Assembly (NCBI RefSeq): GCF_003334305.1
Contig: NZ_QOWS01000043.1
DNA: 10,116 nucleotides
Origin: Escherichia coli
GTDB lineage: Bacteria > Pseudomonadota > Gammaproteobacteria > Enterobacterales > Enterobacteriaceae
Reading direction: 5' to 3' (one strand)
The translations under genes were made by a program, and so were the position numbers. The notes beneath the pieces were generated by a model. It saw only the letters and a program-made list of their open reading frames with translations, was not told where the DNA came from and ran no database searches. Of the stretch, positions 256-6,607 are shown in pieces; the first letter of the stretch is position 1, and the number at the start of each line of letters is the position of its first letter.

Positions 256-1095
256 TTAATACACTTCATCCAGCACGTTAATTTTCAAAAGATCGCGAAT
301 CAACGTATTTTTATCGCTATTTTGCAGCCATATGGCATAAAGCGGCCGTGAAAGTGTTGTGCTATCGACAACGGTATGCAGGCCGCCTTTTTTACGCGCC
401 CAGCTGACGGGTAGCCAGGTGCAACCATTAAGCATCGCAATCTGTTGCTGTGCCAGTTCAGCAGAACTGGTTGTCAGAATGGGCACTTCGTCAGCACCGA
501 TCAAACCTGCCTCATGCTGTTGAAAATCTGGCCCCCACTCAAGTCGCAGATAATTAAGATCTCCCTTTAGTTTTGAAGGGGCACTGGTATAAAGCGCTAA
601 AGTGAAATATCCCAGCAACTGACTACTAAATTCGTCCATTTTGGGCGCTTCAGTGGTAATAAGAAGATCAAGCTGGCGTTCATGCAGCTGTTTTACCAGA
701 GACTGCCGTTGGGCAATTCGCGCTTCGAACTGTAAGCCTGTATGGGCATCCTGATTTTGATACAAACGTCCCAGCCACTGATTAAGCATACATTCCCACA
801 ATGAGGCGCTGGCACCGATAGAAAACTCGTTATGTCGTGAGGTATGCGCCACCTCCTTGCGGGCGGCCTGCCAGGTGCTCATGAGCGTTTCTGCATAAGG
901 CAGTAGTTTTTCACCGGCAGCGGTTAAACGGATATTGTTTCTGTGGCGGGTGAAAAGGTTCACACCCAGTTGATTTTCCAGTTGTCTGATTCGAAAGCTC
1001 ACTGCTGACTGGGTCAGATAGAGCGATTCAGCCGCTCGACCAAAGTGACGCGTTCGGCTAACTTCCAGGAAAGTTTTTAACAATTCCGTATCCAC
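256..1095 (-). CDS. hdfR: LysR-family transcriptional regulator HdfR (279 aa), GTG start
   Basis: 279-aa ORF with an N-terminal LysR-type helix-turn-helix ([16 protein letters not shown]) and a C-terminal substrate-binding-like domain. The sequence matches HdfR/YifA as recalled. The first codon is GTG (plus-strand cac at 1093-1095), preceded on the coding strand by GGAGAG, an appropriately spaced Shine-Dalgarno. Position between the tRNAs and maoP/comM matches known synteny. Confidence 0.85.
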
Positions 1096-1213: not shown

Positions 1214-1552
1214 ATGGCGGAAAGCTTTACGACGACTAATCGATATTTCGACAATAAACATTATCCACGTGGATTCTCTCGTCATGGTGATTTCACCATC
1301 AAAGAGGCACAACTGCTTGAGCGTCATGGTTATGCCTTCAATGAGTTGGATCTTGGCAAACGCGAGCCGGTTACCGAGGAAGAGAAACTCTTCGTAGCAG
1401 TATGCCGTGGCGAACGTGAGCCAGTGACAGAAGCAGAACGCGTGTGGTCCAAGTATATGACGCGTATTAAGCGTCCAAAACGTTTTCACACCCTTTCCGG
1501 CGGTAAACCGCAGGTTGAAGGTGCTGAAGACTACACCGATTCTGATGATTAA
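1214..1552 (+). CDS. maoP: MaoP / YifE (DUF413 family, macrodomain Ori protein), 112 aa
   Basis: 112-aa ORF with ATG start at 1214 and an AGGAG Shine-Dalgarno at 1201-1205 (8-nt spacer). Sequence [42 protein letters not shown] matches YifE as recalled. Divergent from hdfR, convergent with comM. Confidence 0.85.
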
Positions 1553-1553
1553 T

Positions 1554-1576
1554 AAAAAGGGCGAAATGCCCTTTTT
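1554..1576. terminator. Bidirectional intrinsic terminator shared by convergent maoP (+) and comM (-)
   Basis: Stem aaaaagggc (1554-1562) / gcccttttt (1568-1576) with loop gaaat. The GC-rich core gggc/gccc is flanked by an A-run on the 5' side and a T-run on the 3' side, so either strand reads as hairpin plus U-tract. maoP stop is at 1550-1552 and comM stop at 1577-1579, directly abutting. Confidence 0.75.
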
Positions 1577-3097
1577 TTATGTCAGTAGTTTTTGCAGATG
1601 GATGAGCAAACGGTCAATCGCACGATAGCTAACTGCCTCCTGCAAATGCTGACGTGTGATAATGTCAGACTGATCAATATCAGCAATGGTTCGTGCAACT
1701 TTCAATAACCGCTGCCAGGCACGAATCGATAACCCCAGATGGATCAGTGTTCCTTCCAACCACATCGCATCTTCGCTCTCAAGTTTGCAGAATTGGCGTA
1801 TTTCCGGACTATCCAGCCAGGCATTCAGTTTATTCTGCCGCTTAAATTGGCGCTCTCTGGCGGCCATTACGCGTTGTTTAACGGTGGCGCTGCTTTCTCC
1901 CGGCACTACCGTTTTACTCAAAATGCCGGGGGGTGGTAATGGGATCTCCAGTGAGAGATCGAAGCGGTCGAGAAAGGGCCCCGAGAGCCGGTTGAGATAA
2001 CGTAATGTCTGTTCTGGCGTGCAGCGGTTATGGTTTCCCTGATAATGTCCGGTAGGGCTGGGATTCATCGCCGCAACAAGCTGGAAACGGGCTGGATAGG
2101 TTATTTTGGCTCGTGTGCGTGAAAGATGGATCTGCCCGGATTCAATCGGCTCTCGCAAGGCATCCAGTGTACGCCGTTCAAATTCAGGTAGCTCATCAAG
2201 AAAAAGCACGCCGTTATGCGCCAACGAAATTTCACCTGGCCCTGGAATTGCACCACCGCCCACCATCGCAGTTAACGACGCACTGTGATGCGGTGAGCGG
2301 AACGGGCGCTGCCGCCATTGTTTTTGTACTGATTCAGCATTTACCAGACTTAATATCGCAGCGCTCTCCAGTGCCTCTTCATTGCTTAAATCTGGCAACA
2401 GGCCATTAATACGGCTGGCGAGCATTGTTTTACCTGTTCCCGGCGGCCCAATCAGTAAAAGGTTGTGCCCGCCAGCGGCGGTAATTTCCAGTCCTCGCTT
2501 TCCTTGCTCCTGACCGACAACATCACTGAGATCATGTTGTAGCGCCCGGGATACTGCATCAGTTGGTTTCGGGCGTTCGAGAGCGTGCTTACCTTCCAGA
2601 AACGCACAGACAGCCTGCAGATGATCGGCTATCAGGCATCCTTCACCGTTAATTAGCCCCACTTCATCTTCGTTATCTTTCGCGACGATAATTTTTCTGC
2701 CCGACTTAATAGCTTCAGTTGCACTGGAGATTGCGCCGGGAACGCCACGCAGAGCGCCTGTAAGCGCCAGTTCTCCGACTAATTCATATTCATCTAACTT
2801 ATTGGCTGTAAGCTGTTCTGAGGCCGCCAGCAACGCAATGGCGATAGGTAAATCATATCGTCCCCCTTCTTTTGGCAGATCGGCTGGAGCCAGGTTGATG
2901 GTGATTTTTTTCGCCGGATATTCATATCCGCTATTGATAATGGCGCTGCGCACGCGATCGCGAGCTTCTTTTACAGTTGTTTCTGGTAAGCCCACCATCG
3001 TTAAGCCGGGTAGACCTTTACTGATATGTACCTCAACAGTGATTGGGGGCGCATTTACTCCCAGGGCTGCGCGGGTATGAACAATTGACAGTGACAT
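1577..3097 (-). CDS. comM: ComM / YifB, Mg-chelatase-like AAA+ ATPase (competence protein ComM homolog), 506 aa from the downstream ATG
   Basis: Long minus-strand ORF with Walker A (LLLIGPPGTGKTM) and Walker B (VLFLDELPEF) motifs and an N-terminal Lon-protease-like region. The six-frame track starts at the ATG at 3127 (516 aa), but the in-frame ATG at 3095-3097 is preceded on the coding strand by AAGGAGGG with about a 4-nt spacer, a near-consensus Shine-Dalgarno. It gives the 506-aa product beginning MSLSIVHTRA, which matches my recollection of YifB. Confidence 0.85.
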   Translation of the reverse strand: MSLSIVHTRAALGVNAPPITVEVHISKGLPGLTMVGLPETTVKEARDRVRSAIINSGYEYPAKKITINLAPADLPKEGGRYDLPIAIALLAASEQLTANKLDEYELVGELALTGALRGVPGAISSATEAIKSGRKIIVAKDNEDEVGLINGEGCLIADHLQAVCAFLEGKHALERPKPTDAVSRALQHDLSDVVGQEQGKRGLEITAAGGHNLLLIGPPGTGKTMLASRINGLLPDLSNEEALESAAILSLVNAESVQKQWRQRPFRSPHHSASLTAMVGGGAIPGPGEISLAHNGVLFLDELPEFERRTLDALREPIESGQIHLSRTRAKITYPARFQLVAAMNPSPTGHYQGNHNRCTPEQTLRYLNRLSGPFLDRFDLSLEIPLPPPGILSKTVVPGESSATVKQRVMAARERQFKRQNKLNAWLDSPEIRQFCKLESEDAMWLEGTLIHLGLSIRAWQRLLKVARTIADIDQSDIITRQHLQEAVSYRAIDRLLIHLQKLLT

Positions 3098-3304
3098 AAG
3101 CCCTCCTTGAGTCACTATTATGTGCATAAGATATCGCTGCTGTAGCCCGCTAATTCGTGAATTTTAGTGGCTGATTCCTGTTTATTTGTGCAAGTGAAGT
3201 TGAGTTGTTCTGGCGGTGGAATGATGCTCGCAAAAATGCAGCGGACAAAGGATGAACTACGAGGAAGGGAACAACATTCATACTGAAATTGAATTTTTTT
3301 CACT

Positions 3305-3380
3305 CACTATTTTCTTTTTAAAAAACAACAATTTCTATTGAAATTATTAAACGCATCATAAAAATCGGCCAAAAAATATC
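3305..3380 (+). promoter_or_regulatory. AT-rich upstream activating region of the ilv operon promoter (UP-element / IHF-binding region expected here)
   Basis: About 80% A+T stretch with several A5-6 tracts (3320-3325, 3360-3364, 3371-3376) immediately upstream of the candidate core promoter. Published work on ilvGMEDA describes an upstream AT-rich activating region with an IHF site and a non-productive upstream promoter. Exact site boundaries cannot be fixed from sequence alone. Confidence 0.4.
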
Positions 3381-3421
3381 TTGTGCTATTCGCAAAATCT
3401 ATGGTAACTCTTTAGGCATTC
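3381..3421 (+). promoter_or_regulatory. Candidate core promoter and transcription start region for ilvLXGMEDA
   Basis: Candidate -35 TTGTGC (3381-3386) and candidate -10 hexamers in 3400-3410 (tatggt / taactc). A start near 3420 would give a leader of about 180 nt ending at the attenuator T-run (3596-3603), consistent with the recalled leader length. The hexamer assignment is uncertain. Confidence 0.35.
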
Positions 3422-3449
3422 CTTCGAACAAGATGCAAGAAAAGACAAA

Positions 3450-3548
3450 ATGACAGCCCTTCTACGAGTGATTAGCCTGGTCGTGATTAGCGTGGTGGTG
3501 ATTATTATCCCACCGTGCGGGGCTGCACTTGGACGAGGAAAGGCTTAG
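3450..3548 (+). CDS. ilvL: ilv operon leader peptide (32 aa): MTALLRVISLVVISVVVIIIPPCGAALGRGKA
   Basis: ATG at 3450 through TAG at 3546-3548. 15 of 32 codons encode Leu (4), Val (6) or Ile (5), the hallmark of the branched-chain amino acid attenuation leader. An intrinsic terminator lies immediately downstream. Confidence 0.9.
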   Translation: MTALLRVISLVVISVVVIIIPPCGAALGRGKA

Positions 3549-3569
3549 AGATCAAGCCTTAACGAACTA

Positions 3570-3603
3570 AGACCCCCGCACCGAAAGGTCCGGGGGTTTT
3601 TTT
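3570..3603 (+). terminator. ilv attenuator (Rho-independent terminator of the leader transcript)
   Basis: GC-rich stem acccccg (3571-3577) / cgggggt (3590-3596) followed by 8 consecutive T (3596-3603), 22 nt after the ilvL stop codon. Confidence 0.85.
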
Positions 3604-3634
3604 TGACCTTAAAAACATAACCGAGGAGCAGACA

Positions 3635-3685
3635 ATGAATAACAGCACAAAATTCTGTTTCTCAAGATTCAGGACGGGGAACTAA
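3635..3685 (+). CDS. ilvX: Small ORF ilvX (16 aa: [16 protein letters not shown]) between the attenuator and ilvG
   Basis: ATG at 3635-3637 preceded by GAGGAG (3624-3629), stop TAA at 3683-3685, two nt before the ilvG ATG. It matches the position and sequence of the described E. coli small protein IlvX as I recall it. Translation cannot be judged from sequence alone. Confidence 0.55.
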
Positions 3686-3687
3686 CT

Positions 3688-5334
3688 ATGAATGGCGCAC
3701 AGTGGGTGGTACATGCGTTGCGGGCACAGGGTGTGAACACCGTTTTCGGTTATCCGGGTGGCGCAATTATGCCGGTTTACGATGCATTGTATGACGGCGG
3801 CGTGGAGCACTTGCTGTGCCGACATGAGCAGGGTGCGGCAATGGCGGCTATCGGTTATGCCCGTGCTACCGGCAAAACTGGCGTATGTATCGCCACGTCT
3901 GGTCCGGGCGCAACCAACCTGATAACCGGGCTTGCGGACGCACTGTTAGATTCTATCCCTGTTGTTGCCATCACCGGTCAAGTGTCCGCACCGTTTATCG
4001 GCACGGACGCATTTCAGGAAGTGGATGTCCTGGGATTGTCGTTAGCCTGTACCAAGCACAGCTTTCTGGTGCAGTCGCTGGAAGAGTTGCCGCGCATTAT
4101 GGCTGAAGCATTCGACGTTGCCAGCTCAGGTCGTCCTGGTCCGGTTCTGGTCGATATCCCAAAAGATATCCAGCTAGCCAGCGGTGACCTGGAACCGTGG
4201 TTCACCACCGTTGAAAACGAAGTGACTTTCCCACATGCCGAAGTTGAGCAAGCGCGCCAGATGCTGGCAAAAGCGCAAAAACCGATGCTGTACGTTGGTG
4301 GTGGCGTGGGTATGGCGCAGGCAGTTCCTGCTTTACGAGAATTTCTCGCTACCACAAAAATGCCTGCCACCTGCACGCTGAAAGGGCTGGGCGCAGTTGA
4401 AGCAGATTATCCGTACTATCTGGGCATGCTGGGAATGCATGGCACCAAAGCGGCGAACTTCGCGGTGCAGGAGTGCGACTTGCTGATCGCCGTGGGTGCA
4501 CGTTTTGATGACCGGGTGACCGGCAAACTGAACACCTTCGCACCACACGCCAGTGTTATCCATATGGATATCGACCCGGCAGAAATGAACAAGCTGCGTC
4601 AGGCACATGTGGCATTACAAGGTGATTTAAATGCTCTGTTACCAGCATTACAGCAGCCGTTAAATATCAATGACTGGCAGCTACACTGCGCGCAGCTGCG
4701 TGATGAACATGCCTGGCGTTACGACCATCCCGGTGACGCTATCTACGCGCCATTGTTGTTAAAACAACTGTCGGATCGTAAACCTGCGGATTGCGTCGTG
4801 ACCACAGATGTGGGGCAGCACCAGATGTGGGCCGCGCAGCACATCGCACACACTCGCCCGGAAAATTTCATTACCTCCAGCGGCTTAGGCACCATGGGTT
4901 TCGGTTTACCAGCGGCGGTTGGCGCACAAGTCGCACGACCGAACGATACTGTCGTCTGTATCTCCGGTGACGGCTCTTTCATGATGAATGTGCAAGAGCT
5001 GGGCACCGTAAAACGCAAGCAGTTACCGTTGAAAATCGTCTTACTCGATAACCAACGGTTAGGGATGGTTCGACAATGGCAGCAACTGTTTTTTCAGGAA
5101 CGATACAGCGAAACCACCCTTACTGATAACCCCGATTTCCTCATGTTAGCCAGCGCCTTCGGCATCCCTGGCCAACACATCACCCGTAAAGACCAGGTTG
5201 AAGCGGCACTCGACACCATGCTGAACAGTGATGGGCCATACCTGCTTCATGTCTCAATCGACGAACTTGAGAACGTCTGGCCGCTGGTGCCGCCTGGCGC
5301 CAGTAATTCAGAAATGTTGGAGAAATTATCATGA
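3688..5334 (+). CDS. ilvG: Acetolactate synthase II (AHAS II) large catalytic subunit, intact 548 aa
   Basis: Uninterrupted 548-aa ORF starting [25 protein letters not shown] with a thiamine-diphosphate binding motif ([14 protein letters not shown]...LDN). GGGGA Shine-Dalgarno-like sequence 8 nt upstream. Followed by ilvM with a 4-nt overlap. Confidence 0.95.
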
Positions 5335-6543: not shown

Positions 6544-6552
6544 ATACAAAAA

Positions 6553-6577
6553 ATGGGACGGCACGCACCGTCCCATT
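6553..6577 (+). other. Intercistronic stem-loop between ilvE and ilvD (possible weak terminator / mRNA stability or processing element)
   Basis: Perfect 8-bp inverted repeat tgggacgg (6553-6560) / ccgtccca (6567-6574) with a 6-nt loop, preceded by an A-run and followed by only TTT. This is not a strong U-tract, so partial termination at most. Confidence 0.5.
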
Positions 6578-6607
6578 TACGAGACAGACACTGGGAGTAA
6601 ATAAAGT

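Follow-up and report, generated by a model that had tools for sequence, protein, structure and literature searches.

Where do transcripts end when two convergent genes leave only 24 nt between them? We met this question in a stretch of 10,116 nt of the Escherichia coli chromosome (hereafter the window), in which maoP is read from the plus strand and yifB, or comM, towards it from the minus strand. We consider it likely that a single 'hypersymmetric' Rho-independent terminator fills the spacer between the two genes, a role that is demonstrated for maoP and deduced from symmetry for comM. Below, we describe the element, place the published 3' ends on it, follow it through the Enterobacterales, and then weigh what happens on the comM strand.

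Two stop codons around one hairpin

Of 5426 complete E. coli genomes, 5424 contain a match of at least 95% identity to a 601-nt query spanning the site, and the DNA under this query carries the RefSeq annotations maoP and yifB. Window positions become MG1655 coordinates by adding 3946872. The features relevant to the argument are the following.

Start of the window, ahead of hdfR: partial aspT, then trpT and the rrnC terminator
256-1095, minus strand: hdfR (NCBIfam HdfR, NF002946)
1163-1179, upstream of the hairpin: maoS, the published MaoP target
1214-1552, plus strand: maoP (yifE; b3764), coding sequence of 112 aa (list of open reading frames; NCBIfam PRK11027; RefSeq annotation of identical DNA)
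1550-1553, minus strand: predicted 3' end of the comM transcript, placed symmetrically to the end mapped on the plus strand
1554-1558, plus-strand letters: run of five A, pairing with T1572-1576 and extending the stem
1559-1571: GC core, made of GGGC (1559-1562), the loop GAAAT (1563-1567) and GCCC (1568-1571), from the sequence and the folds
1572-1578, plus strand: run of seven T, the U-tract of the maoP terminator, of which the first five (1572-1576) can pair with the run of A
1577-1579, plus strand: mapped 3' end of the maoP mRNA (MG1655 3948449-3948451; three published E. coli K-12 datasets)
1577-3097, minus strand: comM/yifB, a Mg-chelatase-like AAA ATPase (list of open reading frames; NCBIfam YifB, NF007365; RefSeq yifB)
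Beyond yifB in the window: ilvL-X-G-M-E-D-A

The identity of maoP rests on the MaoP-family NCBIfam models PRK11027, which score above their cut-off and whose stored description is 'hypothetical protein'. The facing gene has 506 aa according to RefSeq, its open frame extends to an ATG at 3127 (516 aa), and NF007365 covers residues 11-516 of that frame. RefSeq names this gene yifB; comM is the common name for the YifB/ComM family.

The original prediction held that one hairpin at 1554-1576, with a run of A on one side and a run of T on the other, lies between the two genes with both stop codons within a few nucleotides of the stem. Both the sequence and its folding bear this out. Positions 1550-1579 read, in order, TAA, T, five A, GGGC, GAAAT, GCCC, seven T and A. 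The maoP stop codon TAA (1550-1552), which is followed by a second in-frame TAA (1553-1555), ends 1 nt ahead of the hairpin. The comM stop codon, a TAA read on the minus strand at 1579-1577, abuts the hairpin, and the last two T of the run of seven (1577-1578) are common to both. Each stop codon is 5-6 nt from the GC core.

RNA folding, the check proposed together with the prediction, gives the same 9-bp hairpin on either strand, with five A:U and four G:C pairs closed by a 5-nt loop. The hairpin alone has a free energy of -11.0 kcal/mol on each strand and its GC core alone -5.8 kcal/mol; folded in a context of 41 nt, the plus strand reaches -15.2 kcal/mol (z -5.1) and the minus strand -12.4 kcal/mol (z -4.3). 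Read from the minus strand, the RNA consists of the stem A7-GGGC-AUUUC-GCCC followed by the tail UUUUUAUUA (U5AUUA), where the run of five A has become the U5 that starts the comM-side U-tract (1558 down to 1550). The T-weight of the tail is 5.12 on the plus strand and 4.41 on the minus strand, next to 5.09 for the rrnC terminator of the same window. With equal hairpin energy and this tail, the minus strand also qualifies, on classical sequence criteria, as a putative intrinsic terminator.

A consensus scan of the window for promoters and terminators leaves the maoP-comM site out of its output. Judging from the rules of the scan, this is likely because the five A and five T are paired into the stem, leaving too few T in the tail; the miss would then be a limit of the scanner and no evidence against the site. 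Rfam gives no match at the hairpin. We also considered and rejected a REP element as the identity of the hairpin, as well as a small RNA from the maoP 3' untranslated region, which is only about 27 nt long.

The end of the maoP transcript

On the plus strand the question is settled by published maps. The Term-seq data of Adams 2021 place a 3' end at MG1655 position 3948451 in two conditions, classed as 'primary' for yifE and as 'antisense' to yifB. The TRS data of Bar 2023, drawn from RNAtag-seq and Term-seq, have peaks at 3948446-3948458 with a dominant position at 3948449 or 3948451; the end is annotated 'Primary, maoP' and its Signal is 0.97-0.997, on a scale that tops at 1. SMRT-Cappable-seq (Yan 2018) recovers one full-length transcript from 3948049 to 3948450, with only b3764 inside. 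The maoP transcript is therefore a monocistronic unit that starts at window position 1177 and ends at 1577-1579.

These ends fall 6-8 nt past the GC core; an intrinsic terminator should end its RNA in the U-tract or just behind it, about 7-9 nt from the stem. The maoP mRNA thus closes with three bases that are complementary to the stop codon of comM. The earlier idea that termination and the last codons of translation overlap physically is thus correct in its geometry. The hairpin is the maoP terminator, as demonstrated by 3' ends with the geometry expected of an intrinsic terminator.

One can picture the process as follows. As polymerase transcribes A5-GGGC-GAAAU-GCCC-U7, the short GC stem would form, and the A:U pairs would then lengthen it, drawing the U-tract out of its weak rU:dA hybrid until the maoP transcript comes free at 1577-1579, 6-8 nt beyond the stem. 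Pairing of the A-run with the proximal part of the U-tract probably aids termination, because the GC core of 4 bp is weak. The same pairing would make the element readable backwards.

Conservation across the Enterobacterales

To see how general this arrangement is, we collected 80 loci by a MaoP profile scan, with one genome per species, and added seven more distant ones by exact-protein look-ups (Serratia, Morganella, Yersinia, Leminorella, Xenorhabdus, Erwinia and Arsenophonus). The order hdfR-maoP-comM, with comM facing maoP, holds throughout the Enterobacterales loci examined. Hairpins were counted in the 83 loci with an intact spacer, the stem being defined by a strict G:C core. A single hairpin occupies a gap of 21-57 nt across these 83 loci (21-28 nt in 71 of them), and its GC core of 3-6 bp is kept at the same place. 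The spacing to the stop codons is narrowly distributed as well: in 76 of the 83 the maoP stop and the GC core are 5-8 nt apart, and in 74 the distance between the GC core and the comM stop is 4-6 nt.

The letters of the stem change, and so do its length (GGGC, GGGGC, GGGCC, GGGGGC, CGGGGC) and the loops, with pairing retained by compensatory changes. The two positions that flank the core pair as A:T in 51 of 69 distinct variants, as T:A in 14 and as G:T in 3, and are unpaired in one. In a MAFFT alignment 91.3% of the cells are paired, and the covariation is 0.219 as opposed to 0.142 in shuffles, none of 500 reaching the observed value; the true register (slide 0) beats every slid register. These figures are conservative, since the rows with a 5-nt loop, E. 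coli included, lie one column out of register in the alignment, which lowers the paired fraction; the pair counts of the 69 variants are anchored on the loop and free of this shift.

The two strands differ in their tails and loops. The plus-strand tract after the stem has at least five T among eight positions in all 83 loci (median 7). On the minus strand this holds for 74 of the 83; the median there is 6-7 and the range 2-7, with values of 2-4 in nine loci. Read on the maoP strand, the loops are of GNRA type in 24 and of UNCG type in 21 of the distinct variants (45 of 69); the comM-strand reading gives 0.

In the five Enterobacteriaceae loci with spacers of 55-154 nt, the hairpin stays beside maoP, and the minus-strand tail is poor (2-4 T among the first eight) in four of them (L043, L049, L050 and L081). 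Arsenophonus (L089) shows the mirror image: its hairpin lies 4 nt from the comM stop, and the comM strand is the one with a U7, the tail of the maoP strand being weak. Spacers widened to 39-67 nt still contain only one GC-core terminator-type hairpin, not two, in eight of nine loci; L081, with 154 nt, contains several.

We read these patterns as a conserved design around one apparently shared element, with selection seemingly most visible on the maoP-sense RNA. At the other end of the scale of divergence, the hairpin is identical in K-12, E2865, two Escherichia sp. isolates and E. whittamii. A 61-nt megablast query for the hairpin matches 1389 of 5426 E. coli genomes, a count that is uninformative about its conservation: SNPs in the flanks, a word size of 28 nt and the filtering of low-complexity sequence probably account for it.

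The comM strand and the competing explanations

The original prediction claimed a terminator on both strands and named the mapping of 3' ends on both as its check. The plus-strand half of this claim holds in all three datasets; the comM half is deduced from the element itself. Among the matches listed in the tables of Adams 2021, Bar 2023 and Yan 2018, none is a minus-strand 3' end near 39484xx and none is associated with yifB; every '39484' match in the TRS files of Bar 2023 is a plus-strand row. The TERMITe supplements and the supplement of one terminator-prediction paper have no entry for a minus-strand 3' end either. Low expression of comM is a likely reason why no end is recorded on its strand: the neighbouring minus-strand gene hdfR has a coverage of 0.06-0.10 in Bar 2023, about 50-fold lower than the 4.8-7.0 of maoP.

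We infer that the element is shared by both genes, and comM transcripts probably terminate at the hairpin. Polymerases arriving from comM would meet the reverse complement, i.e. the same stem followed by UUUUUAUUA, and by symmetry would stop at about 1550-1553. The comM mRNA would then end 6-9 nt past the GC core of its own strand, and this end would be complementary to the maoP stop codon. The two mRNAs would have a complementary 3' stem-loop of about 30 nt in common, which might also protect each of them from 3' exonucleases. If the comM side works in this way, the hairpin would keep antisense transcription out of maoP, maoS and the hdfR promoter region. Given the spread of minus-strand tails among the 83 loci, comM probably uses this conserved hairpin with variable strength.

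A one-way terminator, serving maoP only, seems to us rather unlikely, and it deserves the most attention among the alternatives. It supposes that the A-run is kept for lengthening a weak 4-bp GC stem and raising the efficiency of termination, and that transcripts from comM either read through, to be ended further on, e.g. by Rho acting on the untranslated RNA antisense to maoP, or are so rare as to be unimportant. Several of the results above fit it well. Only plus-strand 3' ends are recorded among the matches listed for Adams, Bar and Yan, and A:U pairing doubles the stability of the GC core, which would be reason enough to keep the A-run. Among the 83 loci the T-run is invariant and the A-run variable, the tetraloops are tuned to the plus strand, and a good minus-strand U-tract is missing from four of the five Enterobacteriaceae spacers that measure 55-154 nt. 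Yet the minus strand combines an identical hairpin with a tail of the classical type, its U-tract reaches at least five of eight in the large majority of the loci, and in Arsenophonus the better U-tract is the one on the comM side. The searched supplements of Adams 2021 assign a Rho-termination region to neither yifE nor yifB, a negative that counts weakly against the Rho variant. We retain the bidirectional terminator as our main reading.

The bidirectional reading requires little novelty. Bidirectional A-tract terminators between convergent genes, and terminators near or overlapping stop codons, are already described (PMC4824070), and A-tract terminators act both ways according to Postle and Good 1985 and Wright et al. 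1992, as cited there. As far as that citation describes them, the terminator between tonB and its opposing gene (Postle and Good 1985) and the 'hypersymmetric' one of Wright, Kumar and Hayward 1992 are, like ours, GC hairpins flanked by complementary A- and T-tracts, placed between convergent genes, readable from either strand and stabilised by A:U extension. The maoP-comM element differs from these classical cases in having 3' ends mapped in one direction only, in its short core (4 bp) and in having both stop codons in or beside the tracts. It is nevertheless probably an ordinary classical bidirectional intrinsic terminator, of a known kind, and its maoP 3' end is already in published tables. 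The undocumented part, i.e. use by comM, would add at best one member to a known class. The element thus matters little beyond annotation, where it predicts the end of comM transcripts. It is also a clean natural case of stop codons inside the A/U tracts of a terminator, and could serve as a test bed for how the position of the ribosome affects intrinsic termination, a principle that is itself published.

A ribosome protects about 10 nt beyond its A site, and the hairpin of a terminator has to be preceded by about 10-15 nt of free RNA (PMC4824070). At our locus each stop codon is 5-6 nt away from the GC core, so that a ribosome halted on either would cover the 5' arm. In reporter work on the lambda tR2 terminator (Li et al. 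2015, PMC4824070), which resembles our case in that the stop codon was brought to within a few bp of the stem and the ribosome can mask the 5' arm, a terminator placed 5-6 bp after the stop codon of a highly expressed reporter fell from about 90% efficiency to less than 10%. By this logic, termination at our site would need the lead ribosome to lag behind the polymerase. Unlike the reporter, the native maoP site keeps a dominant 3' end in spite of its spacing, and the simplest interpretation is that on the maoP mRNA the lead ribosome usually does lag, in a loose coupling to the polymerase. In E. coli, according to the abstract of a 2026 study, the coupling of transcription and translation depends on a high translational activity.

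One might go further and speculate that the conserved spacing between stop codons and core is a translation-sensing device, in which a ribosome close behind the polymerase masks the 5' arm and causes read-through. If this were so, read-through from maoP would run antisense into comM, and read-through from comM would run antisense over maoP and maoS and into the co-oriented hdfR, which would link the three genes by the tightness of transcription-translation coupling. Some regulatory use of the geometry is possible and at this stage a conjecture; the device as such we hold to be very unlikely.

Polymerases could also stop each other. On this account the hairpin mainly pauses them, and head-on plus trailing collisions of maoP and comM polymerases set both 3' ends. 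Ju et al. in 2019 reportedly assembled a catalogue of E. coli bidirectional terminators by SEnd-seq and proposed such a collision model, which a preprint by Wang et al. also puts forward. The maoP-comM pair has much in common with the overlapping bidirectional terminators of this class, e.g. ynaJ-uspE (Wang et al., bioRxiv 10.1101/2022.10.23.513370): the genes converge, a single hairpin is shared and the 3' ends are complementary and overlap, which in our case is a prediction; moreover, sites of this kind are reported to be widespread in E. coli. But the same work describes them as unlike intrinsic terminators, weak on their own and dependent on collisions, whereas our site is a textbook intrinsic terminator with a canonical U7, a strong maoP end and a weakly expressed partner. 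Since comM and hdfR both look weakly expressed, collisions should be rare, and this is at odds with a maoP end whose Signal lies close to the top of its scale. We find it highly improbable that collisions set these ends, and keep to intrinsic termination.

Processing would leave a similar trace, if transcripts ended elsewhere and 3' exonucleases trimmed them back to the stable hairpin. Sequencing of 3' ends alone cannot separate termination from trimming, and occlusion by ribosomes so near a stop codon could favour the read-through that this scenario needs. It is, however, extremely unlikely here: the U-tail of 6-8 nt and the T-run present in 83 of 83 loci are needed for termination and not for trimming, and the full-length transcript seen by SMRT-Cappable-seq runs from the start site to the hairpin end.

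The chance that the element is a fortuitous palindrome, or that a sequence-specific protein binds its DNA, as an inverted repeat near the MaoP/maoS system might suggest, is next to nil, given that stem sequence, stem length and loop vary with pairing kept, that the loops are of RNA tetraloop types, that maoS, the target published for MaoP, is an upstream site (1163-1179), and that such palindromes are hardly expected in a random window. The latter expectation comes from a purpose-written scan for at least four contiguous G:C pairs around a loop of 3-8 nt, with six T or more among the 8 nt that follow and six A or more among the 8 nt that precede. In 500 shuffles of the window that preserve dinucleotides there are on average 0.002 such sites, and a single shuffle has any; the window itself has exactly one, the maoP-comM hairpin.

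The loop of the shared hairpin

Among the 69 distinct variants of the hairpin shared by maoP and comM in our MAFFT alignment, GNRA or UNCG tetraloops are found in 45 when the maoP strand is read and in none when the comM strand is read. The E. coli loop itself is GAAAT, of 5 nt (window 1563-1567). Comparing loop types by strand is a simple test of the strand under selection, and it could serve for other putative two-way terminators. Relative to K-12, the window has a synonymous GAT/GAC difference at 1546-1548 and a one-base difference directly beyond the T-run of this terminator.

IS4-family elements at the shared hairpin

The GC hairpin of the maoP-comM terminator is also the exact site of IS4-family elements in three genomes of the comparative set, each given here by its locus.

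L054:1610-2950, IS4-family element of 1.3 kb encoding a 397-aa IS4-family transposase
L059:1620-2115, shorter element (about 0.5 kb) whose ends resemble those of the L054 element
L036:1745-1874, insertion beginning directly after the hairpin

The L054 element is flanked by a 12 bp target duplication, GGGCTTAGGCCC, and its left end, TGAGGAATCCCC, is similar to the end of the L059 element, TGAGGGATCCCC. The insertion in L036, which we take to be an IS end, is known for only about 120 nt before the contig ends. The GC palindrome of the terminator seems to act as a hot spot for insertion.

Hairpins that may face antisense transcription

Among the 3' ends listed by Bar et al. (2023) is one on the plus strand that is antisense to hdfR and located at MG1655 3947263-3947271 (window 391-399). 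It is preceded by a hairpin plus a U6 run (...GGCCGCCUUUUUUAC) and lies about 200 nt downstream of the rrnC terminator; it may intercept transcription that reads through from the rRNA/tRNA operon. Another hairpin lies within the ilv operon.

6551-6578, 12-bp hairpin in the ilvE-ilvD spacer, AAATGGGACGG...CCGTCCCATTT

Only its minus strand has a T-run, the sense strand continuing after the stem with TTTACGAG, and it looks like a terminator against antisense transcription within the operon.

The maoS site and the ilv region

1163-1179, maoS, 17 bp, CTAATACTCCGCGCCAT, exact match to the published site
3688-5334, ilvG, intact frame of 548 aa

The maoS sequence has a single exact occurrence in the window. 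The maoP transcript starts at MG1655 3948049 (window 1177) according to SMRT-Cappable-seq (Yan et al. 2018), i.e. inside maoS, so that the MaoP target and the start of maoP transcription overlap. The ilvG gene, a pseudogene in K-12 MG1655, is intact in the window, and the strain is therefore not K-12. An Rfam search matched the ilv leader region (window 3379-3668) to the full model of RF02744, the Rev39 5' UTR of soft-rot Enterobacteriaceae, at 157 bits. The RF02744 family therefore corresponds to the ilvL leader/attenuator region.
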